64,000 nucleotides of DNA from Candidatus Magasanikiibacteriota bacterium. GTDB taxonomy: Bacteria > Patescibacteriota > Patescibacteriia > Magasanikbacterales > UBA922. A program made the translations under genes and the position numbers. The notes beneath the pieces were generated by a model. The model did not search any database. It was not told the origin of the DNA and saw only the letters and a program-made list of their open reading frames with translations. Within the stretch, counting starts at the first letter, position 1. Every line of letters starts with the position of its first letter. Location: the NCBI GenBank assembly GCA_003482855.1, contig DMXO01000005.1, forward strand, positions 10,736-74,735, given 5' to 3'. This document shows positions 615-53,344 of this stretch, in pieces.

Positions 615-651
615 TTATTTTATATTATATATTTAGTACATAATAATCATT

Positions 652-1614: not shown

Positions 1615-1638
1615 TTTTAATGTTGAAAGATTTTTATT

Positions 1639-2007: not shown

Positions 2008-2039
2008 TATTATATATTTACGTTTCCATAAAAAGGTAT

Positions 2040-2678: not shown

Positions 2679-2695
2679 TCAAAGAATTTACTTGT

Positions 2696-3136: not shown

Positions 3137-3173
3137 GTACCAGTTTTTGTCCTTATTATAACAGTAACAATGT

Positions 3174-4445: not shown

Positions 4446-4622
4446 GTTTTAGGTAATTAGGGGAAAATAGGAAATTTTACGAGACCTGCTTTACGAGCGG
4501 GTTTTTTATTGAGGTTAGAATTTTTATCACCTAACACCTATAACCTAAATACCTAAGGTAGGATGGTTGTCAAGAGACAACTCGTATGTTATATTATCTG
4601 TGCTTAAATAAGCTTATAATAT

Positions 4623-4949: not shown

Positions 4950-4974
4950 ATAATTTCGAAATTACATTTAATGT

Positions 4975-5640
4975 ATGAAGAAAATTATAATCCTCATGGG
5001 TGTTCCTGGTAGTGGAAAAGGAACTCAAGCTCGAAAATTAGCCACACGTTATGGTTATGCGCATATATCTACTGGAGATTTATTGCGTGCTTTGGACGCA
5101 GATCCACATGCAGACCCAGCTGATAAACAAATGCTTGCTGATACGATGAAGACAGGTAAACTTGTGCCCAATGAATTGACCTACAAATTGGCTTTTAAAG
5201 AAATAGAAAAAAATTTACAGGCAGGCAAAGGCGTTATTTTGGATGGCGCTATTCGCAGTGTAGAACAGGCTCAAGAATATCAGAAATTTTTTGAAAAAAA
5301 TAATGTTTTGGGTGAAGTTCTCGTAGTTGAAATAAAATTGTCTGATGAGACCAGCTGGAACCGATTAACCAAAAGAAAAGTGTGTCCTTCATGTGGATTT
5401 ATTTTGCCTTTTTCACCAGAAAATGAATTGAAAAAACAATGCCCTGAGTGTAATGGAGAATTAATCGTACGCAAAGATGATAACCCAGACACTATTAAGC
5501 AGCGTATTGCTGATCAAGGAAATATTGCTATTGGCTCTATTTTGGATTACTACAGGGACAGGGATGTGTTGTTTTCAGTCGATGGTGAACGCAGTATTGA
5601 TGAAGTGGATGAACACATGTCGAAATTACTAGAGGAATAA
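4975..5640 (+). CDS. adk: Adenylate kinase with a Zn-binding LID (CPSCG...CPEC)
   Basis: P-loop GVPGSGKGTQA, four Cys in the LID, 221 aa. Confidence 0.95.
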   Translation: MKKIIILMGVPGSGKGTQARKLATRYGYAHISTGDLLRALDADPHADPADKQMLADTMKTGKLVPNELTYKLAFKEIEKNLQAGKGVILDGAIRSVEQAQEYQKFFEKNNVLGEVLVVEIKLSDETSWNRLTKRKVCPSCGFILPFSPENELKKQCPECNGELIVRKDDNPDTIKQRIADQGNIAIGSILDYYRDRDVLFSVDGERSIDEVDEHMSKLLEE

Positions 5641-5657
5641 TATTCCTCTTTTTCTTT
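5631..5657 (+). terminator. Rho-independent terminator after adk
   Basis: Perfect 8-bp stem AGAGGAAT/ATTCCTCT with a 3-nt loop, overlapping the adk stop, followed by TTTTTCTTTT. Confidence 0.6.
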
Positions 5658-5694
5658 TCGTATAGTATACTTATTCAATTGATGTATACATGTT

Positions 5695-6942
5695 ATGAAA
5701 CAAGCCCTTAAACATTTTTTCATACCTCACGAAGGGAATAATTATCATCCGCATATTTTGCATACCAAGCGGGCAATTATGTATAGTGGTATTTTTTTGG
5801 CTACCAAATTTATTGTTATTAGTTTTGCTGTTTTGTTGCCATTGCAAGTATTTGTTATGCCAGACGTCTTGCAGGTACAGCAAGAACAAATTATTGCTCT
5901 GACCAATGATATGCGTGCACGCAAAGGATTGCCTCTGCTTCATGATCAGACAAAATTATATGTATCGTCTCAGATGAAAGCAGATGATATGGCAGCAAAG
6001 CAATATTTTGAACACGTGGGTCCTGATGGGAAAGGACTCAAGGATTATATGTATGCAGCTCAGTACGATTATCGTTACGCAGGAGAGAATCTTGCAATGG
6101 GATTTAGCAACGCACAGGAGCTCGTGTATGCGTGGGCCAATAGCCCTACTCACTATGCCAATCTTATAGATACTGATTATAATGAGTTCGGTGTAGGGCT
6201 TGAGGTGGGTGAATACAATGGTGTACCGACGATATATGTGGCCCAGCATTTTGGCTCTCCTAGCATCACTACAAGCACACAAGAGGCAAATGAAAGCCCA
6301 GTGACTTCTACCTTCGTAGGTGAAGTAGCATCTAGCAAATTAGATACATCAGAAATTTATGTCGAGGCATCTGACGTTATCCACGAAAAAAATATTGCTC
6401 AATCCAATATACATGTAAATTCACCATCCATTGTATATAATAAAGATGTTTCTCGTGTATTTTGGCGTGAAGAAGACGGAAGGACAGTGCTTACTGCCAA
6501 AGCATATATCGTGGGGGATGTAGTATCTGCTATAGTTCGTGTGAATCAATATAGCATTGAGTTATTTCCCTCAGAGCAGCCGTTTGTATATCACGGAGAA
6601 ATCACAGTATTTGATTCGAGCGATAATTTGTTCAAGGTGATAACAACGCCTACTATCGCTATCAATGGTGTGAAGGACGTTTTTACGCAAGATACAATTT
6701 TGTGGAATACTGTCAAAGTCGTAGCACCCACACCTATGGAAAAATACACCCAGGCAAAAACATTGCTTGGTGGATTTACTCGTATCTTTGATATATCAAG
6801 GGGAATTTATCTGGGTTTTATCATCTTTTTTAGCATCGCCCTTGCTTTAAAAATTTTTATCGAATTTAGGAAACAACACCCTCATGTCATATTGCAGACC
6901 ATACTACTTATTGGACTTCTTGTTATATTATTTGAAGTATAG
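5695..6942 (+). CDS. CAP/SCP (YkwD-like) domain protein with an N-terminal TM anchor and a C-terminal TM segment
   Basis: CAP-domain motifs (HS-like region ...GENLAMGFSNAQELVYAWANSPTHYANL...EFGVG). Hydrophobic N- and C-termini. Confidence 0.65.
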   Translation: MKQALKHFFIPHEGNNYHPHILHTKRAIMYSGIFLATKFIVISFAVLLPLQVFVMPDVLQVQQEQIIALTNDMRARKGLPLLHDQTKLYVSSQMKADDMAAKQYFEHVGPDGKGLKDYMYAAQYDYRYAGENLAMGFSNAQELVYAWANSPTHYANLIDTDYNEFGVGLEVGEYNGVPTIYVAQHFGSPSITTSTQEANESPVTSTFVGEVASSKLDTSEIYVEASDVIHEKNIAQSNIHVNSPSIVYNKDVSRVFWREEDGRTVLTAKAYIVGDVVSAIVRVNQYSIELFPSEQPFVYHGEITVFDSSDNLFKVITTPTIAINGVKDVFTQDTILWNTVKVVAPTPMEKYTQAKTLLGGFTRIFDISRGIYLGFIIFFSIALALKIFIEFRKQHPHVILQTILLIGLLVILFEV

Positions 6943-11236: not shown

Positions 11237-11306
11237 TTTATAAGCAGAGTAAGCAAAAATGTAGGCTTAATCTGCCTAATTTGCTTATTCTGCTTATAGC
11301 TTTGTT

Positions 11307-12683: not shown

Positions 12684-15600
12684 ATGAGTCGTTTTATTTC
12701 AGGTTATATAGCGCGCATGAGACATTCTGTCTCATTGAGAGCGCCCAAATTTGGGAGCCGATGGACACATCGAGTATTTTTTGTTGCTGTAGTTGTGTTC
12801 GGTGTCCTTGCTGTAGGGCAGGTAGTAGGTGCTCTTGATATAGTAGGTGGCCTTATCAGCGCAGTATCATGGATCATGCTTACCGTAGCCCAGATTTGTA
12901 TTGCACTTACTATATTTTTTCTTAGATTTTTTATTACACTTGCAAGCTACAACAACTATATAGATGTGAGTGTGGTGAAACTTGGTTGGGCCATGGTGCG
13001 TGATGTGGCAAATATGTTTTTTGTGGTGGCGCTTCTGATTATCGCGTTTGCTACTATCCTCGGACTTGAACAATATGAATGGAAAAAGGGCTTAGTCAAG
13101 CTTGTGATCATGGCTATTTTCATCAATTTTAGTAATCTCATTGCTCAACTTATTATTGATGCCGCGCATGTATTTACCATTACATTTCTCAATGCAATAT
13201 CAGCAACTGCCGGTGGCAACCTGATCAACATGTTTAAGCTTGACACGATTGTGACCATGGTAAGTGGCAAAGATCTAGGTGTGACTCCAGAATCAGCACA
13301 AACTGCCATACTCGGCGCTTCGGTTGTCGCGACATTGTTTGCCATTCTCTCAGCGGTTGCGCTTGGCTCGTATGTGATTGTCATGGCGATCCGTGTCGTG
13401 GTATTGTGGGCACTTATTATACTTTCTCCTCTTGCGTATGTGCTGTATGCAGTACCAAAGGGTGAAAAGTACGCTCAGCAGTGGTGGAGCGAATTTACCA
13501 AGCATGTTGTTGTCGCGCCGGTTATGGTTTTCTTTTTGTGGCTTGCGTTTGCCACACTTGGCTCAGGACAAATCTTGAATGAGATTGTAGGACCAGGAGT
13601 GGTGCCTCTCCAGGTGGGTGAAGAAGTACAGTCAGTGTCCCTATCAAATGTATCTTCATGGGAAAACATGGCAAATTATCTTATCGCGCTTGTATTTCTC
13701 ATGATTGGTCTCAAGATGACTCAGGAGAGTGGTGCCCAAGGTGCTGGACTTGTTGGTGGCGCAGTAAACTTTGGCAAGAAAGTGGCAACTATTGCAACGG
13801 GCTATGCTGCAGGTAGGTGGCTTGTAGGTGGAGCTGCAAAAGTTGCGGGTGGTGTTGCAAAAGGCGCCCTTTGGTATGCACCTGCTATTGGTGGAGAGAA
13901 ATGGGCTACAAGAGGCAAAATTATTGGCAATGCAGTGAAAGGTTGGTATAGAGGCAAAGGATATGAGACAACTGATGAAGGTGAACATATACGCCAAGAG
14001 ATAGAAGAAAAGCGTGAATTATTGGATAATGCCAATAGCCCAGAGCGACGGGCTGCGATTGCAAAACAAATAGAACAATTGAAAAAAGAAGAGACATCAA
14101 TAGGGGAGAAGAAAGCCGATGGTTCAGAAGGTGCATATAAAAGTGAGGCAGAAAAGAAGGCGGCGCTCGAATCAAAGCAAGCAGAAATACAGAGAAACGA
14201 AAAAATGCTTGAACAATCTCAAGGTATGACTGAGACCCAGAGAGCAGGTCTCAAGGAAGAAATAGAAGGACTTGAAAAAGAAATGCCTAAGCATATGGGT
14301 GGTGGTATGTTTGGTTATTTTGCACGCAAAGATATTCAATTACAAAAACAATTGGCAAAAACAGAAAAACAACAAGATTTTAGAAAACAAATTCTGTGGA
14401 AACGTGTAGGCTCTGAAGCAGGTGGCAATGTCATGGGTTTGAGTATTGGTATGGGAGGCAGAGGCCTTGGTTTTGGCAAGACAGGTAAGTACAGAATTTT
14501 TGGTGATAAATATAAGCAAGAAGTCAGAGAATGGGCAAAAGATGCAGAAGGTAAAGATATTGTGGGGCAACAAGCTGTGTATTTGGAGGGTTCAAAAAAA
14601 GGACAGAAAAAATGGAAACAAAAATATGCAGGCAGTGATGCCCAAGATCGTGTAGAGCGTGGGTGGTTTCAAGCAGAAGAAGAACGTTCAAAATCGAAAG
14701 ATTCTGAATATGAAACTCTAGGTAAATTGGAAGTGTTGAAAAAATCACGTCTCAAATATGATGTCGAGAGCGGAAAATTTGCTTATGAGACTGCGAAGGG
14801 TACTATGGACCAGCGTATCGCAAGTCATACTATAGCAGGAGAAGTGCATCATGCAGCCATAGAGAAGCTCGAAGCAGAGGGGCGTCTCAATCTCATGCTC
14901 GGCAAAGTGAGTCTCAAAGCTTTTACAGTCAAAGGTGTCAATGATTTGTTTGAAAAGCAGTCTATGGCAAAAGTGTACAAAGATGCGCTTGCTTCTGTGG
15001 AAGATACCAAGCTCAATGATAAACTGTCTGAAAAAATGAAATATGGGACTGGGCTGGACAAGATAGCATCACTCGTAGAGTCAGGTATGTTTGGTACGCC
15101 TGAAGAAATAGGAGCCATAGAAAAAGCCCAAAAAGAATTAGATGCTATAAAAAAAGAAAGAGAAGTAGCAAGAAAGGATGTGGTAGAAACAAACACAAGT
15201 TTGGCCGCTTTGGTAAAGAAAGAACAAGATGGTGCTGAGGTTAGCGAAGATGACAAAAAAGATTTGGTATCAGCTCGCGCCACACTTGAAGATATAGAAG
15301 AAGAGGAAAATAGAGGTGATTTAACTGACGAAAGAAGAAAAGAACTTGATGAACTCAAAGCGTATGCGCAGGAAGAAATTGCAAGTATAGAAGCGCGGCA
15401 GGATATGGCAGGATCTTTGACTTCGGAAGAAGCAATAGAAAAAGCTAAATTGGAAAGGGAAAAGACAGAGAAAGAAGAAAAAATGATTGCTTTGCTCAAA
15501 AAAGAAACAGAAGTAAAAAATCGTTTGAAAACAGCGCGTGGAGTTTTTGGACAACATGCAGAACGATTGCGTGATGGTGATGAGACAATTCTTGATCAAT

Positions 15601-17447
15601 ATCAACAACAGCTTGGTGTACTTGCGTCTGGGGAAGATGCTAAGGCAGCTGCTCTTGAACAAGAAGCAGCAACAGAAAGAGATGCAGAAAAAAAGGCAGA
15701 TAAACAAAGAGAAGCTCAAGGACATAGAGCCAAAGCAGCAGACTATAGAACTACGCATGGAATTTTTGAGAAGCAGAGATCTACTCTTGGACAAGGTGGT
15801 GTTGCTTGGCAGTATGGCCTTGCCAAGGCAAAACAAGCTGAACAAAAAAGATCTCATGATTATGAACACAATTTACTCTTGTCTGATTCAGAGCAGCGCT
15901 CTATTTGGGATAAACGTGGTATCAATACGCCAACAAATGCCATGCGTGAAATGATTGAACAAATGGAAAAAGATTTTTCTCAGATGTCGTACGAGACGTT
16001 TGTCGAAAGTTCTGGCAAAATGTTTATTGAGATGGCTGAGAAGTCTGCCAAAGGTACGATTACTAATGCTGATAGAGCCGCACTCGCAGGATTTTTCAAG
16101 CGTGGGTTCAATGAATCATGGGTTGATGATGTCATCATTGGTGTGATGACCAATGAAGAATCGCGCGCTGCTATTGGTTCACAATTAGGATGGCGTGACG
16201 CAGGATTTTCTCCAGACAAAATTCGTGATCTTGAGATGTTTATTGCATCAGGTGGAAACACCAAATTTGCAAAAAATAATGTTGTTATATCTGAGATAGT
16301 AGATGAAGCAATGAATGGTGACAAAGAATATAGGATGAGTGTTGCTCAGGTATATGAGGGTCTTAATACAGGTGTTTTCAAAAAAGAGGATGGCACCAGC
16401 TTTAGTCCTGAAGCCATACAAAAATTGAAAGCAGCCACACGGAAACGTCTCACTGAAGAGAATCGCGTGTTGACTACATACCAACAAGATTTATTTGACA
16501 AATTTTTAGCAACCGAAGCCAAACAGATTGAAGGGTCTGCACAACAGCGAGGTGAGGTTATGAAGCATTATCTCGATACTCTAGAAGAAAGTCAGGGATC
16601 AATGGAGTGGTTTGGCAACTTGCGTAATGAGGCTATTCGCAATGGGCATGGTGAAAATGCTGGTTGGGCTTTGTCGCACGACGTAGGCGGTGGCAAATCT
16701 ATGTATATTGCTTCAGGTGTGCGCATGGCACGTGATCATGTATATTTTGACTTGAACAAGACTGATCAATATATGCGTTCAAAAGCGCACCCACATTCAG
16801 ACGTGAACTTGGCTATTGGTGGCGAAGGTGAAGATTACGGACAGATTTCAACAGAGATTCGAGATTATGATTACAAAACCATGCGTGGCGATATTGTGGA
16901 CGCCAATGGTCATCGTGGTACAACTGCGCGTACGATACAGTTCCACATGGGGTTGTCATCTGCAGACAAGACTGCTGATCAAAAAGATTCTAATGGATTT
17001 TTTGCTGTTGGTAAAGCAAAGAGTACGCGTGCTGTATGGAGAAAGAATCAGGCGCTCGCATTTAAGCTTGCAAAAGAAAAGAGACTTAAATTATCCAATG
17101 GCGTTACGGTAAATGAAGCTGATGAAAATAAACGAGAAGAAGCTCTTGCTGCTATGATGGTCATGAAAAACATCATGGTTCCGCAGATGCGCGCAAACAT
17201 GAATGACTTCCTCATGACTGCGGCCGTTGCTTCTGGTATGAGCGCATATGATGGAGTCAAGGGTAATATGCGTCTTTCACTGCCTTATTTTGAAAAAGAT
17301 GGAAGCGTACATTATAAATCTTTCTCGAGAGCCCAAGATTTTATAGGTGCCGTAAGGTCAGGTATGTTTGGAGAACATTTTGGTGGTATACCAAATTTCA
17401 AGCCGTCTGATTCAGGCAGACCAGATCAGGATCATACGCCTTCCTAG
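12684..17447 (+). CDS. Giant VirB6/TrbL-like polytopic membrane protein (1587 aa)
   Basis: Residues 1-330 have ~7 TM helices with TrbL/VirB6-like spacing. A Gly-rich linker follows, then a ~500-aa E/K-rich coiled coil (res ~430-1000), then a ~580-aa C-terminal domain. Sits in a locus with VirB3- and VirB4-like genes. Confidence 0.6.
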   Translation: MSRFISGYIARMRHSVSLRAPKFGSRWTHRVFFVAVVVFGVLAVGQVVGALDIVGGLISAVSWIMLTVAQICIALTIFFLRFFITLASYNNYIDVSVVKLGWAMVRDVANMFFVVALLIIAFATILGLEQYEWKKGLVKLVIMAIFINFSNLIAQLIIDAAHVFTITFLNAISATAGGNLINMFKLDTIVTMVSGKDLGVTPESAQTAILGASVVATLFAILSAVALGSYVIVMAIRVVVLWALIILSPLAYVLYAVPKGEKYAQQWWSEFTKHVVVAPVMVFFLWLAFATLGSGQILNEIVGPGVVPLQVGEEVQSVSLSNVSSWENMANYLIALVFLMIGLKMTQESGAQGAGLVGGAVNFGKKVATIATGYAAGRWLVGGAAKVAGGVAKGALWYAPAIGGEKWATRGKIIGNAVKGWYRGKGYETTDEGEHIRQEIEEKRELLDNANSPERRAAIAKQIEQLKKEETSIGEKKADGSEGAYKSEAEKKAALESKQAEIQRNEKMLEQSQGMTETQRAGLKEEIEGLEKEMPKHMGGGMFGYFARKDIQLQKQLAKTEKQQDFRKQILWKRVGSEAGGNVMGLSIGMGGRGLGFGKTGKYRIFGDKYKQEVREWAKDAEGKDIVGQQAVYLEGSKKGQKKWKQKYAGSDAQDRVERGWFQAEEERSKSKDSEYETLGKLEVLKKSRLKYDVESGKFAYETAKGTMDQRIASHTIAGEVHHAAIEKLEAEGRLNLMLGKVSLKAFTVKGVNDLFEKQSMAKVYKDALASVEDTKLNDKLSEKMKYGTGLDKIASLVESGMFGTPEEIGAIEKAQKELDAIKKEREVARKDVVETNTSLAALVKKEQDGAEVSEDDKKDLVSARATLEDIEEEENRGDLTDERRKELDELKAYAQEEIASIEARQDMAGSLTSEEAIEKAKLEREKTEKEEKMIALLKKETEVKNRLKTARGVFGQHAERLRDGDETILDQYQQQLGVLASGEDAKAAALEQEAATERDAEKKADKQREAQGHRAKAADYRTTHGIFEKQRSTLGQGGVAWQYGLAKAKQAEQKRSHDYEHNLLLSDSEQRSIWDKRGINTPTNAMREMIEQMEKDFSQMSYETFVESSGKMFIEMAEKSAKGTITNADRAALAGFFKRGFNESWVDDVIIGVMTNEESRAAIGSQLGWRDAGFSPDKIRDLEMFIASGGNTKFAKNNVVISEIVDEAMNGDKEYRMSVAQVYEGLNTGVFKKEDGTSFSPEAIQKLKAATRKRLTEENRVLTTYQQDLFDKFLATEAKQIEGSAQQRGEVMKHYLDTLEESQGSMEWFGNLRNEAIRNGHGENAGWALSHDVGGGKSMYIASGVRMARDHVYFDLNKTDQYMRSKAHPHSDVNLAIGGEGEDYGQISTEIRDYDYKTMRGDIVDANGHRGTTARTIQFHMGLSSADKTADQKDSNGFFAVGKAKSTRAVWRKNQALAFKLAKEKRLKLSNGVTVNEADENKREEALAAMMVMKNIMVPQMRANMNDFLMTAAVASGMSAYDGVKGNMRLSLPYFEKDGSVHYKSFSRAQDFIGAVRSGMFGEHFGGIPNFKPSDSGRPDQDHTPS

Positions 17448-17476
17448 TTTGACTAATTCGGGATAATGATATTTTT

Positions 17477-18649
17477 ATGTTTTCACTTGATTTCATACTT
17501 GCACAATTATATCCCTATAAGAAATTAGAAGATCTCCAAAAAATACTGGATGATGATTTTCGCGACCCTATGTTGTACCCAGAGTATGACACCTGGACAT
17601 GGAAAGAAGTGAAACAAGAGGATCTATCCGCTTTGGAAGTTCAGATACGCCTTATAAAGACTTTGTTTTCCACACAGTATCTGTATGACGGGACAGTTCA
17701 GCTTATCATGGATTCATTTGAGAAATGGAGCAAGAGTGGCACGATTGTATTTGAAGGAGTAACTCCTGATGACCAATTATTTTTGGAACGATATTATTGT
17801 TTTTTGGGATGGCTCCATTTTGCCCATATTACGTATGCACGCAAATTATATTTGCTTGAGTCACGCTTTTTGCCGTTGGCTATTGTGTGGGATATTCCCG
17901 TATACAGTAACACGCAGGACTACTTTGCTCAGTATATATATGTAGATGGCTTGCGTGAGGACAGTACCGTATTTGCTGATGCTATGGGTCGCAATGAGAC
18001 ACCCTTGGGTTTACCAGAAAAAGGAGCAAAGACGATAGGTGAGTGGATGGTGATATTCGACGAGTTTGAAGGTAGCTCTATACCTACGCGCGTGGATGAG
18101 TTTATGAATGACAAGATGGAAATCCAACGCCTCAACGAAGATGAAAAGAAAATTTTGTACAAAATTATTACTTTGTATTGGGGATTGCGCGGAGGTTTCA
18201 TCTATCGTGAGATAGAAAATGAAGTGCCTGGCTCATATACCGAGAAAGCAAAAAAGGAAAATAAATCAGTTGATGATTATTATCTTGAGGCATTATACGA
18301 GGCTACGAGAGAGCAATTCAAACAATGGCTTACGACATGTGGCGAGGCGGCGTATTGGATGTATCTGACCAAAAAAGATCAAAATTTTATAAAAAAGTTG
18401 ATTTATATTTTGCTCGAAAAAGCAAATTTGGATGATGATGACGAAGCTCAGATGCTCATTGAATTTTTTATGGTTCTTGAAGAATTTGGTTTGACTGGCT
18501 TAGAGGATGTTATTTATTTTGATGAATCAAAAGGAGGTTTTGCATGGGATGAAGATAGACTGGTAGGACTTCAACCAATCATCGGTGGAAGCGAGCCTGA
18601 CACCAAATCAGGAGACAAGAAACCACCAAAAGAATTATTTGCAGGATAG
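17477..18649 (+). CDS. Hypothetical acidic cytoplasmic protein (390 aa) in the T4SS-like locus
   Basis: ORF; no TM; no recognisable family. Confidence 0.5.
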   Translation: MFSLDFILAQLYPYKKLEDLQKILDDDFRDPMLYPEYDTWTWKEVKQEDLSALEVQIRLIKTLFSTQYLYDGTVQLIMDSFEKWSKSGTIVFEGVTPDDQLFLERYYCFLGWLHFAHITYARKLYLLESRFLPLAIVWDIPVYSNTQDYFAQYIYVDGLREDSTVFADAMGRNETPLGLPEKGAKTIGEWMVIFDEFEGSSIPTRVDEFMNDKMEIQRLNEDEKKILYKIITLYWGLRGGFIYREIENEVPGSYTEKAKKENKSVDDYYLEALYEATREQFKQWLTTCGEAAYWMYLTKKDQNFIKKLIYILLEKANLDDDDEAQMLIEFFMVLEEFGLTGLEDVIYFDESKGGFAWDEDRLVGLQPIIGGSEPDTKSGDKKPPKELFAG

Positions 18650-18653
18650 ATAT

Positions 18654-19895
18654 ATGGCAGATGGCACAACACAACCTACCATACTTATAAAAAAGGCCGA
18701 CGGTAGTACGGTTCGTGTTTCGCTTGATGAATTTCGTAAACAAAAAAAGGGGAGTGAAACTTTGTCTACATCATCATCAGACGTACAGGATGTAAAAGGT
18801 ACTTTAGTTACAGATGAATTTCCTCAGATTGAAATAGAAAAAGGAAAAATTATCCCAGATAAACAACCAAAAGACGTACAGGCTCCTAGACCACGCCCTG
18901 TCCCTCTCTATACCATTCAAGATTTGAAAGATACACAATCCAAAGATGTAGAAACTAGACAAGAAGTAAAGAATATTGAGGTTGAAGATAATACACTACA
19001 AGTGGCATCTCCTCATGAACTATCTACGACAGCACCAGTGTCGCGTATATTTGTGGATGAAGCTCAGGCACAGGCCGAAGAACACTTGCCAATGGATTTT
19101 TCTTCCCTTTTGGAAGAAGATATGTCTGAGGTAGATACTCTGAAACAAGAGGGAACTACTCATGAGACTCATGAACAGCTACAGACACAAGTATCTGCGC
19201 CAAGAGTTGGTGTAGTGGATACTCTCGAACCACGTCTCAAATCTCTCATCATTTCATTTGAAAAAGGTGTGAGAGATGAACATCAGTTTGTCGAGTATGC
19301 CATGCGTAGCATTGAACAAGGAGGCCTAGGGATGACAGAGGACATGGCTTATAGGACACTGAGTGAAGTGAAAAAGAGTACGCCACAGATACAGAAACAA
19401 CCTATTATTGCCAAAAAAATGGTGAAGCAAGGTGCGCCTTCCATGGATACATCAAACCATGTAGTTCAACCACCCAAATTGACGCGCGTAGATACGGCTC
19501 TCCCGCCACGCATGGTACATGTATCACCCCCCTCAGTGAGGCACGATATTGTACCGGGCATGGGAGTGCAAAAAGCTATGGGACCTATTGAAGAAATAAA
19601 AGAGTTTACGCTTATTGATCTGCGTCGTCTGTCTCGTGATGCAAACACGGCAGCAGATATGCTCTATGCCAAATTCAATGGATGGAAAGAAGAATCTTTT
19701 CTTCTTTATATGGATGTCCGCAGTGCATGGAGACAAAGTCCTCTCTATAGAGAATATATTTCTATTACGACACGAGCATTGGATACGCATATGCATGTGC
19801 AGGATGTTATTGAGGCACAATCATCGTCATCTGGTGGATTGACATTTAGAGAATACATGGGCCTTGTGTCTTTCAACAAAAAATTGGGAATATAA
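18654..19895 (+). CDS. Hypothetical protein (413 aa), likely largely disordered, in the T4SS-like locus
   Basis: ATG 18654 lies just after the upstream stop; the ORF track's 18585 start overlaps the previous gene. Pro/Gln/Thr-rich. Confidence 0.5.
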   Translation: MADGTTQPTILIKKADGSTVRVSLDEFRKQKKGSETLSTSSSDVQDVKGTLVTDEFPQIEIEKGKIIPDKQPKDVQAPRPRPVPLYTIQDLKDTQSKDVETRQEVKNIEVEDNTLQVASPHELSTTAPVSRIFVDEAQAQAEEHLPMDFSSLLEEDMSEVDTLKQEGTTHETHEQLQTQVSAPRVGVVDTLEPRLKSLIISFEKGVRDEHQFVEYAMRSIEQGGLGMTEDMAYRTLSEVKKSTPQIQKQPIIAKKMVKQGAPSMDTSNHVVQPPKLTRVDTALPPRMVHVSPPSVRHDIVPGMGVQKAMGPIEEIKEFTLIDLRRLSRDANTAADMLYAKFNGWKEESFLLYMDVRSAWRQSPLYREYISITTRALDTHMHVQDVIEAQSSSSGGLTFREYMGLVSFNKKLGI

Positions 19896-19898: not shown

Positions 19899-20330
19899 AT
19901 GCAACAGTTTATCGTACCACAATTTATTGATGTGGAAGACAAAATATTTGGTCCTATTACGACACGGCAATTTTTGATTCTTTTGGTTGCCGGTATTACT
20001 ATTTTTTTTACCTATCGGTTTGGAGATTTTTCTTTATTTATTGTTATGCTTGCTCTTGGTGGTGGGTCGTCGCTTGTATTTGCATTTGTACGCATCAATG
20101 GACAAGCATTTCATTATTTTCTTTTAAATATTATTCAAACTGTCCGGAGACCATCACGAAGAATATGGTCGAAGAGGTATACCAAAAGGGATTTGGATTA
20201 TCTGCGTAAACAGACGGTAGAAGAACAAGTAGAACAAGAAAAAAAGAAACCAGCAAGGAGAGAACATATTAGAGACTTGGCGTTACTCGTGAATACGGGC
20301 GGTTTTTATCGACCAGAAGATGATCTATAA
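19899..20330 (+). CDS. PrgI/VirB3-like small membrane protein
   Basis: 143 aa, two TM helices after a QFIDVEDKIFGPITTRQF motif, directly upstream of the VirB4-like gene. This arrangement is typical of Gram-positive T4SS. Confidence 0.45.
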   Translation: MQQFIVPQFIDVEDKIFGPITTRQFLILLVAGITIFFTYRFGDFSLFIVMLALGGGSSLVFAFVRINGQAFHYFLLNIIQTVRRPSRRIWSKRYTKRDLDYLRKQTVEEQVEQEKKKPARREHIRDLALLVNTGGFYRPEDDL

Positions 20331-20336: not shown

Positions 20337-21023
20337 ATGAAAAGCAAAAAAGCACAACAAAAAAATTCTAAACAACCGGCAACACAACTCCATCTTCCTA
20401 TTGCTGAAATAAAGGACGGTGTGGTGATTCTCAAAGATGGCACCTTGCGCGCGGTAATGTTGGCATCGAGTATCAATTTTGCACTCAAATCTGAAGATGA
20501 ACAAAATGCTATTATTTCATCATATGTTGGTTTTCTCAATTCAATTGATTTCCCTATACAAATCGTTGTCCAGTCACGTCGATTGCAGATCAAGCCGTAT
20601 GTAGAACATCTCATCGATATCGAACAAAAGCAAACCAATGAACTTTTACGTGTACAAATAGCAGACTATCGCGCATTTATCGAAGAGCTTGTTGACATCG
20701 GCAAAATTATGACCAAGAGATACTATGTTGTGGTACCCTATGATCCTATTTCAAATAAACAGAAAAGTTTTTGGTCAAGATTCAAAGAGGTCATTAAGCC
20801 GGCATTTACACTGCGACTCAAAGAAGAACGTTTCCAACAACGTAAAGGTGATCTTGATTTGCGTGTGCGTCATGTGAGTAGCGGTTTGTCGGGGATCGGC
20901 CTCGAAGTCGCTCAACTGGATACTCAAGCGCTTATTGAGTTGTATTATGGCACCTACAATCCCGATATATCATTTGCTGAACAACTTGGCGATATACAAA
21001 AGCAACAAATAGAATATACCTAG
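20337..21023 (+). CDS. VirB4/ConE-like N-terminal domain (228 aa); apparently the first piece of a split VirB4
   Basis: IAEIKDGVVILKDGTLRAVMLASSINFALKSEDEQNAIISSYVGFLNSIDFPIQIVVQ resembles the start of Gram-positive VirB4 (ConE/TcpF/PrgJ). Ends LIELYYGTYNP. Confidence 0.5.
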   Translation: MKSKKAQQKNSKQPATQLHLPIAEIKDGVVILKDGTLRAVMLASSINFALKSEDEQNAIISSYVGFLNSIDFPIQIVVQSRRLQIKPYVEHLIDIEQKQTNELLRVQIADYRAFIEELVDIGKIMTKRYYVVVPYDPISNKQKSFWSRFKEVIKPAFTLRLKEERFQQRKGDLDLRVRHVSSGLSGIGLEVAQLDTQALIELYYGTYNPDISFAEQLGDIQKQQIEYT

Positions 21024-21110
21024 AGTATAGATTGTATATATATCTTGGGAGAGAAGTGCAGAGGTTATGTTGTTATCTTGAGATTTAAAGAAGTTTTAAA
21101 AATTTTTAAT

Positions 21111-21242
21111 TTGTCTAATTCATCTAATTTTCTAATAAAATTTCTAATAAAAAAATTCAAAATTAAATTTTGCACGATATTAGATAATTTGAGATTTTAT
21201 TAGAAATTAGACAATTAGGTGAATTAGAAATTTGTAGACAGT
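21111..21242. repeat. MITE-like imperfect palindrome (family B) inside the 272-bp gap between the VirB4 pieces
   Basis: Left arm TTGTCTAATTCATCTAATTTTCTAATAAAATTTCTAATAAAA and right arm TTTTATTAGAAATTAGACAATTAGGTGAATTAGAAATTTG are reverse complements. A related copy lies at 53149-53250. Confidence 0.55.
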
Positions 21243-21295
21243 TATACATATTTGTACCGTCAATTTAAAATATAAACATTTGGTACATGTAAATT

Positions 21296-23185
21296 TTGTT
21301 AAGTGTATTTATGCCATTTAAACCCGTTAGTTTTGGAAAATCAAAAGCAATGACACCAGTTCGTACTCCCAAAGATGCGGAGCAAGAGCGGGTTCAAAGC
21401 GAGATGGTCACTCTCGAAGAGGAACGCCTCTATCGTGAGGGTACTGTTGCGATACGTGACCTCATTGCCCCATCAGCACTCAATATCGAGGCGAGCTTTT
21501 TGCAGCTTGGCACGACATTTTTGCGTACTATTTTTGTCGTGAGTTACCCACGTTACATTTCAGTTGGCTGGAGTGCACCTATACTCAATCTCAATCTGAC
21601 TATGGATGTGAGTATGTTTTTTTACCCTGTGAATTCTGCCATTATCCTGAAACAATTAAAAAAGAAAGTGGGCGCTTTGCAAGCTCAGCTCTCTGCGGAT
21701 GCTGAAAAAGGTGCCCCTCGTGATCCATTACGTGAGACAGCGTTACGTGACATTGAACAACTTCGAGATGATCTTACACAGGGCATTGAACATTTTTTTC
21801 AATTTGCTTTTTATATAACCCTATATTCAGATTCCAAAGAAGATTTGGAAAAAGTCACCGAAGATATACATAATATTTTTGGTTCCAAGCTTATCCACAG
21901 TAAACATGTACTGTACCAAGCTGAGCAAGGATTCAATTCTACGGCCCCTTTGGGCATTGATGAACTCGTGATTTCATTCAACATGAATTCATCTCCTATA
22001 GCTGCGTCGTTCCCATTTATTTCTTCTGAACTTACAAGTGATGATGGTATTTTGTATGGTATCAACAAACACAACAACAGTCTCATATTATTTGACCGTT
22101 TTTCATTGCAAAATGCCAACATGGTTGTATTTGCCACGTCTGGTGCTGGTAAATCATATGCAGTCAAGCTCGAGATTTTGCGCAGTCTTATGATGGGCGT
22201 GGATATCATTGTTATTGACCCTGAAATGGAGTATGTACATCTGTGTGAAGCAGTAGGAGGTACTTATATCAATATTTCACTTGCCTCAGAGAGCAAGGTC
22301 AATCCGTTTGATTTGCCACGTCCTGTCGGCCAACAAATATCTACCGAAGATGTTATACGTAGTGCGGTCATTACGCTCAAAGGATTGCTTCGTATCATGT
22401 TTGGTGCCATGACTTCGCAGGAAGATTCTATTTTGGATCGTGCATTACTTGAGACATATGCAAAAAAAGATATTACTGCGGCAAGCGACCTTGCCACAGT
22501 TGAGCCGCCGATTATGCAAGATCTGCTTGATGTACTCGAGGGCATGGAAGGCGCTGAAAATTTGGTTGTCAAATTGCAAAAATATACTGAAGGTACTTTT
22601 TCTGGGTTGTTCAATTCTCCGACCAATGTAAATACGAGTAATCAGCTTGTCATCTTTAGTGTTCGCGATTTGGAAGATGAATTGCGTCCTATGGCTATTT
22701 ATACATTGGTCAACTATATTTGGAATATCGTTCGTAGCGAACGAAAGAAGCGTCTCCTCATGATAGACGAGGCATGGTGGCTCATGATGCACGAAGATAG
22801 TGCCAAATTTATGTATGCGCTCGTGAAACGTTGCCGTAAATATTATCTTGGTGTTACGACGATTACTCAGGACGTCAATGATTTCTTGCGCTCTCCTTAT
22901 GGTCAAGCAATTGTGAACAACTCCGCGCTCCAACTATTGCTTCGCCAGTCACCATCCGCTGTAGATGTCATTCAAAAGACATTTATGTTGACTGAGGGTG
23001 AAAAGTATTTGTTGTTGGATAGCCCTGTGGGTCAGGGAATTTTCTTTGCAGGCAATAAGCACGCTGCTATTCAAGTCATTGCATCATATACCGAAGATCA
23101 ACTTGTTACTTCCAATCCCCAACAATTGCTCGAGATAGAGCGTGCAAAAAAAGAATTTGAAGAACAGATGATGCAAAATAAATAA
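21296..23185 (+). CDS. VirB4-like type IV secretion ATPase (C-terminal 629 aa; second piece)
   Basis: VirB4 mid-domain pattern IAPSALNIEASFLQLGTTFLRTIFVVSYPRYISVGW. Walker A FATSGAGKSYAVK; Walker B LLMIDEAWWLM. TTG start at 21296; ATG at 21311. Confidence 0.8.
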   Translation: MLSVFMPFKPVSFGKSKAMTPVRTPKDAEQERVQSEMVTLEEERLYREGTVAIRDLIAPSALNIEASFLQLGTTFLRTIFVVSYPRYISVGWSAPILNLNLTMDVSMFFYPVNSAIILKQLKKKVGALQAQLSADAEKGAPRDPLRETALRDIEQLRDDLTQGIEHFFQFAFYITLYSDSKEDLEKVTEDIHNIFGSKLIHSKHVLYQAEQGFNSTAPLGIDELVISFNMNSSPIAASFPFISSELTSDDGILYGINKHNNSLILFDRFSLQNANMVVFATSGAGKSYAVKLEILRSLMMGVDIIVIDPEMEYVHLCEAVGGTYINISLASESKVNPFDLPRPVGQQISTEDVIRSAVITLKGLLRIMFGAMTSQEDSILDRALLETYAKKDITAASDLATVEPPIMQDLLDVLEGMEGAENLVVKLQKYTEGTFSGLFNSPTNVNTSNQLVIFSVRDLEDELRPMAIYTLVNYIWNIVRSERKKRLLMIDEAWWLMMHEDSAKFMYALVKRCRKYYLGVTTITQDVNDFLRSPYGQAIVNNSALQLLLRQSPSAVDVIQKTFMLTEGEKYLLLDSPVGQGIFFAGNKHAAIQVIASYTEDQLVTSNPQQLLEIERAKKEFEEQMMQNK

Positions 23186-23816: not shown

Positions 23817-24524
23817 ATGAACATAAAAGCAATATACAAACAGGGGATATGTATAACCAAAGATATTTTGTTTCCTGCATATTGTCTTGGGTGTGGTAAA
23901 GAGGGTATATTGGTGTGCAAAGATTGTTTGCAGACACTCGATTGTTCGGGTGTTTTTTGTTGTCCCGTGTGCCATGCTTCTTCCCTAAATGGTAAGGTCT
24001 GCGAGATATGTATGGCGCAGTCGTATTTGGACCGACATGTAGCAATTACTCAGTACAAAGAAAAAGGCCTTGTAGGAGATATGTTGCATATGTTCAAATA
24101 TTCATATGTAGAAGATATGGCACAAATACTGCGCGACATGGCAATCAAATTTTCACAGGTATATTCATTTGACGTGGATATTGTAGTTTGTGTCCCCTTG
24201 CATCGTAGGAGATTGGCACAACGCGGATTCAACCAAGCAGAAGAGATCGCGCGTATTAGTTCACAAGTTTTTGACATACCTTTTCACAGTATCTTGAGAC
24301 GGTGTCGTCACACTAGGCAGCAAGCAAAGCTGAATCGTGAAGGTAGATTAGTCAATCTTATTGACGCATTTGAAATTATAAAAAATGATTTTGATTTGAA
24401 TAATAAGAGGGTTTTGCTCGTAGATGATGTACTGACAACAGGATCAACTATGCAAGAATGTGCAAAGGTTTTGAAAGGGGCTGGCGCAAAAGAAGTGATA
24501 GGATTTAGTGTGGCGCGTGGATAA
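23817..24524 (+). CDS. comFC: ComF family protein (ComFC; phosphoribosyltransferase-like with an N-terminal Zn-ribbon)
   Basis: Four CxxC pairs in the N-terminal half. PRTase motif VLLVDDVLTTGSTM. Confidence 0.8.
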   Translation: MNIKAIYKQGICITKDILFPAYCLGCGKEGILVCKDCLQTLDCSGVFCCPVCHASSLNGKVCEICMAQSYLDRHVAITQYKEKGLVGDMLHMFKYSYVEDMAQILRDMAIKFSQVYSFDVDIVVCVPLHRRRLAQRGFNQAEEIARISSQVFDIPFHSILRRCRHTRQQAKLNREGRLVNLIDAFEIIKNDFDLNNKRVLLVDDVLTTGSTMQECAKVLKGAGAKEVIGFSVARG

Positions 24525-24553: not shown

Positions 24554-24643
24554 TGGCGGAGAGAGTGGGATTCGAACCCACGGTGGACTTTCATCCACAA
24601 CAGTTTTCAAGACTGCCGCCTTAAACCACTCAGCCATCTCTCC
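24554..24643 (-). tRNA. tRNA-Ser (anticodon UGA), type II, CCA encoded
   Basis: Minus-strand clover-leaf: GGAGAGA acceptor, anticodon loop CUUGAAA, long variable arm, GGTTCGAAT T-loop, discriminator G. Confidence 0.85.
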
Positions 24644-24728
24644 ATTTAAATAATTAGAACTAGTATCTATCTCGCTTACGCGAGTCTGGCGGACTGTGTC
24701 CGTCGTAGCTCGCTTTGGCGAGCGAAGG

Positions 24729-24815
24729 CGGAGAGGGCGGGATTCGAACCCGCGAGGGAATTGCTTCCCTAACACATTAGCAGCGTGCCGCTTTCGGCCA
24801 CTCAGCCACCTCTCC
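24729..24815 (-). tRNA. tRNA-Ser (anticodon GCU), type II
   Basis: Acceptor GGAGAGG/CCTCTCC, anticodon loop CUGCUAA, long variable arm, T-loop TTCGAAT, discriminator G. Confidence 0.85.
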
Positions 24816-24874
24816 ATTGGGATTTGTTACGCTACGTTGGGCAAGTGTGTAGGGCGTAGCATAAAGGAGTCCTG

Positions 24875-24961
24875 CGGAGAGTGAGGGATTCGAACCCCCG
24901 GTCCCCTTGCGGAGACTGCAGTTTAGTAAACTGCTGCTATCGACCACTCAGCCAACTCTCC
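24875..24961 (-). tRNA. Type II tRNA (Ser-like identity: G73, GGAGAGU acceptor) with anticodon loop UUACUAA, i.e. an apparent ACU anticodon
   Basis: Manual fold: acceptor GGAGAGT/ACTCTCC; D-arm GCT...AGC; anticodon stem GCAGT/ACTGC; loop TTACTAA; 17-nt variable arm; T-arm GGGGG-TTCGAAT-CCCTC. Anticodon identity needs tool confirmation. Confidence 0.7.
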
Positions 24962-28487: not shown

Positions 28488-29060
28488 ATGGGCGGCTTGT
28501 TCGGCAGACGAGTCAACTTTGAGGGGGTTCCCTTGAAGCAGATCATCCTAGTGTTGGTGCTGGTGCTCTGCAGCCTGGTGGGCTGCGCGACGACGGGATC
28601 CGTCCGGACGGATGTGGCGAGCCAGGTGACGAATGTCACCAATCATGGCTCGTTCATCAGGATCGGAGCGGAAGAGGGCATCGCGTTCGATCGGTTCAAG
28701 GAAGATCTCAGATCGGAGACTCGTCCGGTTCTCGTCATCTTTGGCGAGAGCTGGTGCCCTGCATGTGGGAACCTCGAAGAGTTCTGGGCAGGCCAGGAGA
28801 TCACAGAGCTCGGGGTCTACACCATCGACCTCAAAGATGGCGGTGTTGCTGAGATGATCACCCAGGGCCTGTACGAGCCGGTCATTCCTCTCGACTGGAA
28901 CGTTATCCCGGTCTGTGTGCTTCTTCTTCCGGGTTCTCCGATCATGGTTGGTCGTGGCGTCTACGATTGTGGAGAAGCCGTGCTCGAGCGCATCCAGTTC
29001 GAGAAGGACCATCCCGAGAGTCCCACCACGCACCCGTCCAGGCCCAAGGTTCGGACCTAG
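28488..29060 (+). CDS. Thioredoxin-fold (WCPAC) lipoprotein encoded on a ~60% GC island
   Basis: Signal peptide plus lipobox LVGC|A; TlpA/ResA-like motif VLVIFGESWCPACGNL. GC content and GC3 are far above the flanking DNA. Confidence 0.65.
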   Translation: MGGLFGRRVNFEGVPLKQIILVLVLVLCSLVGCATTGSVRTDVASQVTNVTNHGSFIRIGAEEGIAFDRFKEDLRSETRPVLVIFGESWCPACGNLEEFWAGQEITELGVYTIDLKDGGVAEMITQGLYEPVIPLDWNVIPVCVLLLPGSPIMVGRGVYDCGEAVLERIQFEKDHPESPTTHPSRPKVRT

Positions 29061-29261
29061 CTTCCCCTTAAGGATCACCGACTACATCGCCCACATTCGT
29101 GGGGGTGCGGTGGACCCTTCCCCGATTGTGACTTCCCTGCGTGGCAGGTGGACTTGTTCTGAGTGATTGAAGCGCCTCGCTTCTCATGCAGACAGTCTGC
29201 CTGCCGGGGACCAATGAAAAAATCACCTTCGTTGAAATTATGGTGAGCAAAGGAGGAAAAA

Positions 29262-29306
29262 CAAAAAATCACCTTTCAGCTTCGTTCAAGGTGATTTTTT
29301 GTTTTT
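29262..29306. terminator. Bidirectional rho-independent terminator shared by the GC-rich gene (+) and clpP (-)
   Basis: 12-bp stem AAAAATCACCTT/AAGGTGATTTTT with an 11-nt loop, flanked by an A-run upstream and a T-run downstream. Confidence 0.65.
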
Positions 29307-29313: not shown

Positions 29314-29907
29314 TTATGTGATTACTTTGTCGACTATTCCATACGCGACTGATTCTTCTGCACTCATGAAGTAGTCTCTGTCACTATCTTTTTCGATTTC
29401 GGCCATTGGTTTATTTGTATGCTGTTGCAATATATGATTGAGCCTGTCTTTGATTTTGAGGATTCGTTCGGCATGGATTTTTATATCACTTGCTTGACCT
29501 TGGGTGCCACCCATGACTTGATGAATCATAACCTCGCTATTGGGAAGACAAAATCTTTTTCCTTTTGCGCCAGCGGCCAGAAGTACTGATGCCATACTCG
29601 CAGCCATACCTATACAGATGGTAGATACATCTGGTTTTATATATTGCATAGTATCATAAATAGCAAGTCCTGCGGTCACAGATCCACCTGGTGAATTGAC
29701 ATACAGTTTTATATCTTTTTCTGGGTCTTGGTTTGCGAGAAATAACATTTGGGCTATTACAATATTTGCTACATGATCGTCTATTTCAGTACCAAGAAAA
29801 ATAATACGGTCCTTGAGTAATCGCGAATAGATATCATAAGCACGCTCGCCATGAGTAGTTTTTTCTATGACTGTTGGTATGAGGATTTGGGATCTGACGT
29901 CTTTCAT
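29314..29907 (-). CDS. clpP: ATP-dependent Clp protease proteolytic subunit
   Basis: 197 aa; ClpP Ser/His/Asp context (GMAASMAS...MIHQ). Confidence 0.95.
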
Positions 29908-53069: not shown

Positions 53070-53148
53070 TAGTCTTCCCAATGCCGTGATTGTAAGATAC
53101 CATGTAAGAATTCCAAGCGCTGTCTGTACTTTTATGGGATAGTAAATT

Positions 53149-53250
53149 CATCTAATTCACCTAATTTTCAATTCACCTAATAAAAATTTAAAATCAAAAT
53201 GCTAAAAAATGTATATTTTTTGAATTTTATTAGATGAGTTAGGTGAATTG
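53149..53250. repeat. MITE-like imperfect palindrome (family B copy)
   Basis: Arms CATCTAATTCACCTAATTTTCAATTCACCTAATAAAAA and TTTTTGAATTTTATTAGATGAGTTAGGTGAATTG. Shares words with the element at 21111-21242. Confidence 0.5.
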
Positions 53251-53344
53251 CAATTTAGCGAATTTATTAACTGTAAGAGCATAAACAACGCTCATAATTC
53301 TAACATTTTTATCCACGTGATTAATTATTATCCTATATTATTCT

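Follow-up and report, generated by a model that had tools for sequence, protein, structure and literature searches.

In the ultra-small, Magasanikbacteria-type CPR bacterium examined here, VirB4 is very probably encoded by a native and ancient pair of genes, and the palindrome found between them sits in an intergenic junction that was already present. The two-gene arrangement of TrsD and VirB4 in Patescibacteria is itself known and published. The initial annotation of the window (the whole stretch of 64,000 nucleotides analysed here) described two ORFs in different frames, at 20337-21023 (228 aa) and 21296-23185 (629 aa when read from a TTG), separated by a gap containing a MITE-like inverted repeat, and it offered a choice between a virB4 gene disrupted by a repeat insertion and a VirB4 made in two pieces, the second from an internal TTG or ATG start. 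Both ORFs exist as described, and their frames do differ (20337 mod 3 = 0; 21296 and 21311 mod 3 = 2). The locus, which is chromosomal and lies among housekeeping genes, risks being annotated as a disrupted virB4 pseudogene when by the evidence below it is a normal, conserved trsD-virB4 pair.

Two proteins that tile one VirB4 model

The first gene, ORF1 (20337..21023, + strand, ATG start), encodes a TrsD-like or 'TraC-like' (PF26593) protein of 228 aa, a separately encoded homologue of VirB4's N-terminal part, as the initial annotation had proposed. In NCBIfam profile searches it matched three VirB4 models in their N-terminal positions, namely VirB4_plasma (90-238 of 894, E 4.8e-11), CD1110 (11-105 of 752) and TIGR00929 (4-141 of 792), and it also matched positions 21-149 of 201 in the TrsD/TraD model NF041427 (E 1.1e-6), with a score of 28.6 bits that is far under the curated cut-off of 200 bits. 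Judged from its sequence, ORF1 is thus a distant relative of TrsD and not a member of that family at the NCBI threshold. The PF26593 assignment stands in the precomputed annotation of a protein identical to ORF1 and of all 120 homologues listed with it, and went unreported in the Pfam scan performed here, the model possibly being missing from the Pfam copy used. Searches of PDB sequences with ORF1, as a single sequence or as a 48-sequence profile, gave no meaningful match, and it was the fold search alone that worked: with an AF2 model (pLDDT 79, low at residues 217-228) as the Foldseek query, the top 14 PDB matches were all TrwK/VirB4, at probability 1.00. The gene also has the expected position, standing alone directly upstream of a VirB4-like ATPase gene and downstream of a VirB3-like gene, an order around a protein of ~200-230 aa that was checked in the window, in 78 relatives and in the staphylococcal plasmid pSK41.

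The second gene, ORF2 (21311..23185, + strand), encodes a VirB4-type T4SS ATPase of 624 aa that lacks a TrsD-equivalent N-terminal region. The assignment of a VirB4 ATPase with Walker motifs to this ORF is borne out by its score of 347.7 bits (E 1.3e-103) against NF045971, 'VirB4-like conjugal transfer ATPase, CD1110 family', for which the cut-off is 325, by the Walker A sequence GAGKS and the DEAW motif visible in the translation, by Pfam matches to P-loop_TraG (E 8.8e-30), DUF87 and AAA_10, and by matches to the VirB4 C-terminal domain structure 4AG5 (E 4.8e-47) and to TrwK 446-735. The ATG at 21311 (MPFKP...) is its conserved start, as the 78 relatives and also an independent gene caller indicate, and ORF2 homologues share the beginning M-[PA]-F-[KRQ]-P; translation probably does not begin at the in-frame TTG at 21296. 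The host genome is essentially without Shine-Dalgarno motifs, so an argument from ribosome-binding sites is uninformative here. With the start at 21311, ORF2 has 624 aa, the spacer runs over 21024-21310 (287 bp) and the two proteins add up to 852 aa; the initial annotation was therefore right that an AT-rich spacer separates two pieces, one of them possibly read from an internal ATG, whereas its TTG start and the lengths that it gave (272 bp for 21024-21295, and 857 aa) need correction.

Alignment of both ORFs to VirB4 profiles, a check that the initial annotation had recommended, showed that they tile three models without overlap. ORF2 by itself does not cover a full model, beginning at position 172 of CD1110, 292 of VirB4_plasma and 237 of TIGR00929, and the N-terminal positions absent from it are those matched by ORF1: the two follow one another at 11-105 and 172-730 (of 752) on CD1110, 90-238 and 292-888 on VirB4_plasma, and 4-141 and 237-726 on TIGR00929. 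In this respect, and in the structural matches of ORF1 to TrwK chains and of the ORF2 ATPase domain to 4AG5 and TrwK, the pair resembles the canonical single-chain VirB4 proteins (R388 TrwK, Agrobacterium VirB4, F TraC), from which it differs in being two polypeptides whose new termini carry, by profile arithmetic, ~40-80 additional residues of poor conservation.

The surrounding genes belong to the same kind of system. Directly upstream of ORF1 lies a gene for a small PrgI-family (VirB3-like) membrane protein of 143 aa (19899..20330, + strand), which matched PF12666 over the cut-off (E 2.8e-9) and was called in independent assemblies as well. It is preceded by co-directional genes for proteins of 1587, 390 and 413 aa (12684..19895, + strand), the order of this upstream cluster being kept in L081-L086. 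The 1587-aa protein has a weak TrbL_3/VirB6-like match, obtained on the homologous gene in another assembly, and the 390-aa and 413-aa proteins gave no family match. VirB2-like pilin-domain proteins are encoded in the vicinity of trsD-virB4, and no relaxase was found among the window ORFs scanned.

The locus is very probably a chromosomal, monoderm, MPF-FATA-like T4SS of a Candidatus Magasanikbacteria-type Patescibacterium. The TrsD-like ORF1 corresponds by homology to the first ~180 residues of a canonical VirB4, the portion of the N-terminal domain that adjoins VirB3, and ORF2 to the rest of that domain together with the ATPase domain. Both genes are intact and would be translated separately, ORF2 from the ATG at 21311, and their products may assemble non-covalently with PrgI/VirB3 into a VirB4-like unit.

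An ancient split shared with relatives

It is the comparison with other species that decides between a broken gene and a native pair. The pseudogenisation proposed in the initial annotation holds that a single ancestral virB4 was recently broken by insertion of the palindrome, leaving two non-functional fragments, and the locus has that appearance, with an AT-rich repeat between two VirB4-related ORFs in different frames and a spacer longer than in any other of the 79 species compared. The search for an uninterrupted gene in related genomes, however, found none: each of the 78 orthologous loci in other species has this stop and restart and 0 are fused, most of them lacking the repeat and having a gap of 1-15 bp (range 1-176 bp, median 15). 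Nor do ORF1 and ORF2 look like fragments, being 55-92% identical to their orthologues with conserved termini. Homologues of ORF1 number 6918, of which the best 120 are all 211-258 aa long at 71-97% identity, and among 2467 cluster representatives the best 150 have 124-443 aa with identity down to 37%; no fused form occurs among either the best 120 homologues or the best 150 representatives. Because relatives show the two-gene arrangement without the repeat, the very observation that the initial annotation had named as speaking against disruption, pseudogenisation is refuted, and we give it almost no credence. Independent assemblies, made from different samples, agree at 100% identity over the whole locus including the spacer, and for that reason it is not an assembly artefact.

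A related suggestion would be that a single polypeptide is made from both ORFs, through frameshifting, translational bypass or an intron lying in the spacer. Beyond the tiling of ORF1 and ORF2 on one VirB4 model nothing speaks for this, and several observations speak against it: the spacer holds 6, 12 and 8 stop codons in its three frames, its length and the frame relation of the two genes vary freely among relatives (30, 28 and 20 of the 78 fall into the three relations, without frame constraint), no intron or other RNA family is matched at E<=1, and ORF2 homologues always start at the conserved ATG. At 287 bp, moreover, the spacer falls short of the length that a group I or II intron needs. 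Recoding or splicing is accordingly a vanishingly improbable account of the locus. The spacing of 1-15 bp in most relatives suggests that the two separately encoded proteins are produced by translational coupling.

The same division is found outside the CPR bacteria. The staphylococcal plasmids pSK41 and pGO1 have the same gene order and sizes, which in pSK41 comprise a 135-aa gene, trsD (traD) of 227 aa and a 672-aa DUF87/VirB4-like trsE (traE). The split point is also the same, residue 50 of ORF2 aligning to residue 36 of TraE (26% identity over 542 aa), and a break at the same point in pSK41 is a further argument against recent disruption. The ORF1 profile aligns to residues 31-216 of the 227 in pSK41 TrsD over 176 columns (E 1.3e-4, hhalign), with a probability of only 53% and 23% identity. 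The two systems differ in that the trsD-traE gap of pSK41 is 14 bp and the window spacer 287 bp, and in that pSK41 is a conjugative plasmid with a relaxase and a coupling protein whereas the window locus is chromosomal. The shared split point with pSK41/pGO1 lends support to a descent of the CPR system from monoderm conjugation machinery, a view already in print.

TrsD together with VirB4 in the MPF-FATA-related T4SS of Patescibacteria has been catalogued by Quinonero-Coronel et al. 2025 (PMC12102498), and according to that work 1664 of 2272 homologues are associated with virB4 and TrsD is counted among the essential genes of a cultivated relative, Ca. Southlakia epibionticum. These systems are like the one in the window, with adjoining chromosomal genes for PrgI/VirB3-like, TrsD-like and VirB4 proteins and VirB2-like pilin-domain proteins nearby; there is no essential difference from them, and what the present locus adds is the 287-bp palindrome-bearing spacer. 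The passages of PMC12102498 that were consulted contain no mention of intergenic repeats.

The spacer and its palindromic element

The spacer (21024..21310) has 21% GC, as against ~40% in the window, and stops in all three frames. About 130 bp of it (21111..21242) form a palindromic element with inverted repeats I1-I4, in which a left arm of tandem TCTAAT-containing units of 8-12 nt is followed by a variable centre and a mirror-image right arm of ATTAGA units; ~150 bp of the 287 bp are AT-rich sequence outside the element. The outer arms (21114-21136/21206-21228) are 23 nt long and 91% complementary, and the inner arms lie at 21129-21148/21187-21206. This arm pattern has 3 matches in the window and 0 in 100 dinucleotide-preserving shuffles, and the element holds 4 of the window's 8 occurrences of TCTAAT and 4 of its 20 of ATTAGA. 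The minimum free energy fold of the spacer is dominated by the palindrome hairpin.

Several classes of functional element were considered for this sequence. An intrinsic terminator was rejected, as the stem is AT-rich, no T-run follows it (the 3' flank reads ...GAATTAGAAATTTGTAGAC) and no terminator-like site was called in 21024-21310. A promoter-like TATACA-17-TAAAAT at 21243-21271 matches at 9 of 12 positions, and the claim of a promoter was dropped since such sites are no more frequent in the spacer region than in shuffles. Rfam searches of the spacer returned nothing at the gathering cut-off or at E<=1. Short-period repeats might also represent a guide-RNA array of the TIGR or CRISPR kind, elements known from CPR bacteria, and both the 8-12-nt units and the occurrence of TIGR systems in Patescibacteria (PMC12045711) would fit. 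A TIGR array is, however, a direct tandem array of two alternating 8-12-nt repeats (edge and loop) with 9-nt spacers, a period of ~36 nt, usually 5-15 units and an adjoining Nop-domain Tas gene (PMC12045711), whereas the palindrome here is a single one with mirrored arms and units without spacers, and the neighbouring genes scanned include neither a Nop nor a Cas gene. The TIGR assignment was rejected on this definition, and a guide-RNA array of any kind is exceedingly unlikely.

What the palindrome does resemble is a dispersed repeat. A second copy of the family lies at 53140..53270, between the genes at 52608-53069 and 53345-54331, and the two copies have in common the arm motifs TTCATCTAATT / TTAGGTGAATT and the inner boundaries CTAATAAAA / TTTTATTAG. 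Metagenome contigs yielded about 37 related elements, of which the 29 examined are all intergenic and 0 lie inside genes; where the flanking genes are co-directional, 8 are in sense and 13 in antisense orientation. In a G-U test, itself biased by the search pattern, the fold energies of the metagenomic elements in sense and antisense favoured neither strand consistently. The element has terminal inverted repeats and multiple dispersed copies, as MITEs do, so that the MITE-like inverted repeat of the initial annotation is upheld as a member of a dispersed REP/MITE-like family. No target-site duplication of the TCTAAT-type element was detected by an automated boundary search that arm indels hampered, no filled/empty site polymorphism was seen, and no transposase turned up in the scanned ORFs of the window, a set that excludes those at 39-6942. 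In relative L002, three near-identical copies of a hairpin peculiar to that genome occupy three successive junctions of the trsD-virB4 operon, and no flanking duplication is visible in this sharply bounded trio.

Intergenic palindromic repeats of bacteria include REP/BIME, Correia/CREE, RUP/BOX, ERIC and MITEs, and a REP is a G+C-rich palindrome of 20-40 bp with a conserved GTAG/CGTC head and an associated RAYT transposase. The palindromes described here are similar to these repeats in being short, non-coding, hairpin-forming and multi-copy, in being confined, in both orientations, to intergenic DNA between tightly spaced genes, and in differing from one genome to another (intergenic repeats are surveyed in PMC3184786 and PMC3733652). 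They differ from REPs in being very AT-rich and ~90-130 bp long, and are further set apart by arms of tandem 8-9-nt sub-units, unequal in number between the arms, around a variable centre. Comparison of the copies and a scan of ORFs revealed neither a GTAG/CGTC head nor a transposase, RAYT or other, nor a target-site duplication. The window element, at ~130 bp in a spacer of 21% GC and with no RAYT in the scanned ORFs, does not belong to the REP/RAYT elements proper.

Hairpins at this and other gene junctions

Whether the hairpin has a purpose specific to this locus is a separate matter. It might be a regulatory device selected here to tune the TrsD:VirB4 ratio, whether by terminating or attenuating transcription between the cistrons, by offering RNase a processing site, by stabilising the mRNA, or by serving a DNA-binding protein that recognises TCTAAT units as its operator array. 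In ~30% of relatives the junction is at least 60 bp long, and most such junctions fold into a long hairpin; hairpin density in the trsD-virB4 junction is 5-fold higher (2.9 per kb of intergenic DNA, compared with 0.58). The window spacer has, in addition, weak collinear similarity to the spacers of relatives L012, L008 and L019, from which it appears that the insert may have been retained in a subclade with them. Comparable hairpins, often of other motifs, nevertheless occur in 5-15% of all gene junctions of Magasanikbacteria-type genomes, and when counted per junction their frequency here (11-15%) is not clearly different from that at other co-directional junctions (5-13%), with p 0.25-0.58 at two of three thresholds and a marginal excess at the strictest (8/72, 11%, against 27/574, 4.7%; p 0.046). 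Against a dedicated device stand also the 55 of 78 relatives whose junction, at under 60 bp, is too short for a hairpin, the lack of relationship between the hairpin sequences of most species, and the presence of the same element families at unrelated junctions in both orientations; and the missing T-run, terminator call and Rfam match count against it as well. Palindrome-type hairpins thus show no clear excess at the trsD-virB4 junction, and because the density enrichment largely vanished in the per-junction test, a locus-specific hairpin was dropped as the main explanation and is considered distinctly improbable.

On the preferred reading, of a native gene pair, the ~130-bp palindrome was inserted into, or only tolerated in, an existing junction, and did not split a gene. 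The hairpin presumably forms in the transcript and would at most modulate the relative expression of the two cistrons, conceivably through mRNA stability or processing as with REP-type elements elsewhere.

Only the AT-rich palindromes of tandem units in CPR junctions may be new as a family; their arms consist of 8-9-nt sub-repeats, their centres vary and their motifs change from genome to genome, and no description of them in Patescibacteria was found in the searchable literature. It is a speculative and rather unlikely proposition that these form an undescribed CPR-wide intergenic class with an RNA-level role in punctuating operons, by differential stability or processing, in which case the palindrome would uncouple TrsD-like and VirB4 cistrons that are normally coupled in translation. 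Such AT-rich palindromes could have effects on operon expression and may lead gene callers astray; at the present locus they behave like ordinary REP/MITE-like repeats.

Identity and layout of the two genes

The TrsD-like gene ORF1 (20337-21023, 228 aa from an ATG start) and ORF2, the VirB4-type type IV secretion system (T4SS) ATPase gene ending at 23185, both lie on the + strand in different frames, as the initial annotation had described them. ORF2 had been read as 21296-23185 (629 aa from TTG), and here only the start required revision. Its homologues in 78 orthologous loci from other species begin at an ATG aligned to residue 6 of the TTG-initiated frame, and an independent gene caller reports 624 aa; the true start is therefore placed at ATG 21311 (MPFKP...), and relatives share the conserved N-terminal motif M-[PA]-F-[KRQ]-P. 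With this start the spacer covers 21024-21310 (287 bp, 21% GC vs ~40% for the window) and the two products total 852 aa. Contigs assembled separately from different samples (Logan, JGI, ENA) carry the entire locus with its spacer at 100% identity, so it is no assembly artefact. Among 29 + strand genes checked in the window, Shine-Dalgarno-like motifs are almost absent from the 25-nt leaders; only the gene at 23817 is preceded by GGAGGGAG, and the other leaders are plain AT-rich sequence.

ORF2 scores 347.7 bits against the VirB4-like CD1110 family model (curated threshold 325, E 1e-103), and among solved structures it matches the C-terminal domain of VirB4 (4AG5, E 5e-47) as well as residues 446-735 of TrwK. 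For ORF1 there are matches to three VirB4 models at their N-terminal positions and to the stand-alone TrsD/TraD family, and the two proteins tile each of the three models with zero overlap: TIGR00929 (ORF1 4-141, ORF2 237-726), CD1110 (11-105, 172-730) and VirB4_plasma (90-238, 292-888). For an AlphaFold2 model of ORF1 (pLDDT 79) the 14 best PDB matches are all R388 T4SS chains of TrwK/VirB4, with a probability of 1.00 and TMq values reaching 0.55; the matches that follow have a probability of at most 0.35. The profile and fold matches bear out the proposal that ORF1 resembles the N-terminal part of VirB4. The protein is called TrsD-like because it does not reach the NCBI TrsD cut-off (28.6 vs 200 bits); its precomputed Pfam label is PF26593 'TraC-like', and a PrgI-family (VirB3-like) gene lies directly upstream.

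A split that the insert did not cause

Two readings had been offered for this arrangement, disruption of a virB4 gene by the repeat and a two-piece VirB4 expressed from an internal TTG/ATG start. Among 80 orthologous loci from different species, 78 carry both genes, and in 78 of 78 these are separate ORFs, including relatives from which the repeat is absent; pseudogenisation by repeat insertion is thereby refuted on the criterion that the initial annotation itself had set, and the two-piece reading is correct, with its start at ATG 21311. Junctions in the 78 loci measure 1-176 bp (median 15) and are distributed modulo 3 as 30/28/20, which indicates no frame relation between the genes. ORF1 homologues number 6918; the best 120, most of them from Candidatus Magasanikbacteria, are all 211-258 aa long at 71-97% identity. 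When 1.84 billion cluster representatives were searched exhaustively, the best 150 were all 124-443 aa, at identities down to 37%, and no fused ~850-aa protein was among them. Read-through, frameshifting or an intron joining ORF1 to ORF2 can be ruled out, since the spacer holds 6, 12 and 8 stop codons in its three frames and has no RNA family match even at E<=1.

The same layout is found in staphylococcal pSK41, where a 135-aa gene precedes trsD (227 aa), and a gap of 14 bp separates trsD from the gene for a 672-aa DUF87/VirB4-like ATPase (TraE). ORF2 aligns to TraE at 26% identity over 542 residues (E 4e-48); since the alignment begins at residue 50 of ORF2 and residue 36 of TraE, pSK41 and the window share the split point; the ORF1 family profile aligns to residues 31-216 of the 227 of pSK41 TrsD (E 1.3e-4). 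PMC12102498 counts 2272 homologues, 1664 of them virB4-associated, and remarks that in Ca. Southlakia epibionticum the TrsD homologue is listed as essential. The trsD-virB4 arrangement was thus already known, published for this phylum and long familiar from pSK41/pGO1.

A native two-piece VirB4 is the best-supported reading. The TrsD-like protein would provide the first part of the VirB4 N-terminal domain, the part that adjoins VirB3 in single-chain VirB4, and ORF2 would provide the rest of that domain together with the ATPase; the two products presumably assemble together. In most species the genes lie near enough for translational coupling. In the window genome a REP/MITE-like palindrome fills the junction, where its hairpin may influence the relative expression of the two genes.

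The palindromic element and related hairpins

The AT-rich palindromic insert of the initial annotation is evident in nested inverted repeats at 21114-21136/21206-21228 (23 nt, 91% complementary) and 21129-21148/21187-21206, within an element at 21111-21242. Tandem units with a TCTAAT core, at 21114, 21123, 21131 and 21143, make up its left arm and are mirrored by ATTAGA units in the right arm; half of the TCTAAT hexamers of the window (4/8) fall in the element. The arm sequence has three matches in the window vs none in 100 dinucleotide-preserving shuffles, and a second, related palindrome occupies another intergenic region at ~53140-53270. The ~150 bp of the spacer outside the element (21024-21110, 21243-21310) include two smaller predicted hairpins, at ~21041-21083 and at ~21254-21288 (TGTACC...GGTACA).

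A single metagenome scan with two shared 11-mers returned 64 loci, of which ~37 are clear relatives of the same architecture: on one side of a variable centre stand arms of TTTCTAAT/TCATCTAAT/TCACCTAAT units that end in CTAATAAAAT, and on the opposite side ATTTTATTAG(GTGAATTAG)n. All 29 elements examined are intergenic, usually 10-40 nt from the neighbouring genes, and they occur in both orientations between co-directional genes (8 sense, 13 antisense).

Where relatives have trsD-virB4 junctions of at least 60 bp, these nearly always fold into a long hairpin of the same tandem-unit design, usually with a different unit (TACGAAA, AAAGTC, AGCAC, CCAGAAT and others), and the hairpins recur at other sites of the same genomes. 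In another Magasanikbacteria genome (L002) each of three successive T4SS-operon junctions holds a TACGAAA-type palindrome of ~78 nt (4938-5015, 5450-5532, 6704-6783), and the three copies are near-identical. Intergenic hairpins of this design at 11239-11298 (TAAGCA) and 62852-62934 (AAAAGNCTT) in the window have other units, and one genome thus holds several tandem-unit families. Enrichment at the trsD-virB4 junction, suggested by a first estimate, was not confirmed by a per-junction test; hairpins are found in 11-15% of these junctions, and for the other junctions between co-directional genes the share is 5-13% (p 0.05-0.58). The locus L001, with an ORF1 80% identical, has a 13-bp junction and L006 an unrelated hairpin, which shows that the junction inserts turn over. 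Weak similarity of the window spacer to those of L012, L008 and L019 (z 3-4.5 vs mononucleotide shuffles) is suggestive only. The ~120-bp spacers of the L012, L014 and L019 subclade (e.g. L012 6658-6775) contain TTGACATTTGAGCTTTGAAATTTGTAATTA upstream of virB4, a promoter-like TTGACA-17/18-TAATTA motif. A perfect 19-bp intergenic stem at 29257-29306, just downstream of a - strand ClpP gene (29314-29907) and after the + strand ORF 28488-29060, has a terminator-like position.

As to class, the element differs from a REP in size, composition and head motif, from an intrinsic terminator in having neither a G+C stem nor a T-run, and from a TIGR array by definition. The description 'MITE-like' holds for its inverted ends and multiple dispersed copies. 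No target-site duplication was found: none is visible around the three L002 palindromes inspected, and an automated search says little here since the arms differ by indels. Nor was a cognate transposase found among the window ORFs scanned. The insert behaves as an ordinary intergenic repeat, and no description of the tandem-unit palindrome design in CPR (Patescibacteria) genomes was found in the searchable literature.

Neighbouring genes and record labels

Two genes downstream of virB4, at 23817-24524, lies a comFC-like gene whose product has a double zinc ribbon and a phosphoribosyltransferase domain; every independent assembly shows this order, which places a competence-type gene beside the T4SS cluster. 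Three tRNA-Ser genes follow in tandem on the - strand (24554-24961), of which that at 24874-24961 is assigned anticodon ACT by ARAGORN, an A34 anticodon being unusual for bacteria. Further downstream, ~17 kb from the trsD-virB4 cluster, the adjacent genes 38680-40905 and 40913-52588 encode giant surface proteins of 741 and 3891 aa; each starts with a T4SS_pilin domain (VirB2-like, PF18895), after which come adhesin-type domains (Big_5, TIG and VWA).

Many public MAG records with a typical Patescibacteria T4SS cluster are titled 'uncultured Gammaproteobacteria bacterium' (L005, L007, L008, L013, L015-L017 and many others), one is titled 'Acutalibacteraceae' and one 'Vicinamibacterales'; either the taxonomic labels appear to be wrong or the contigs appear to be contaminants.
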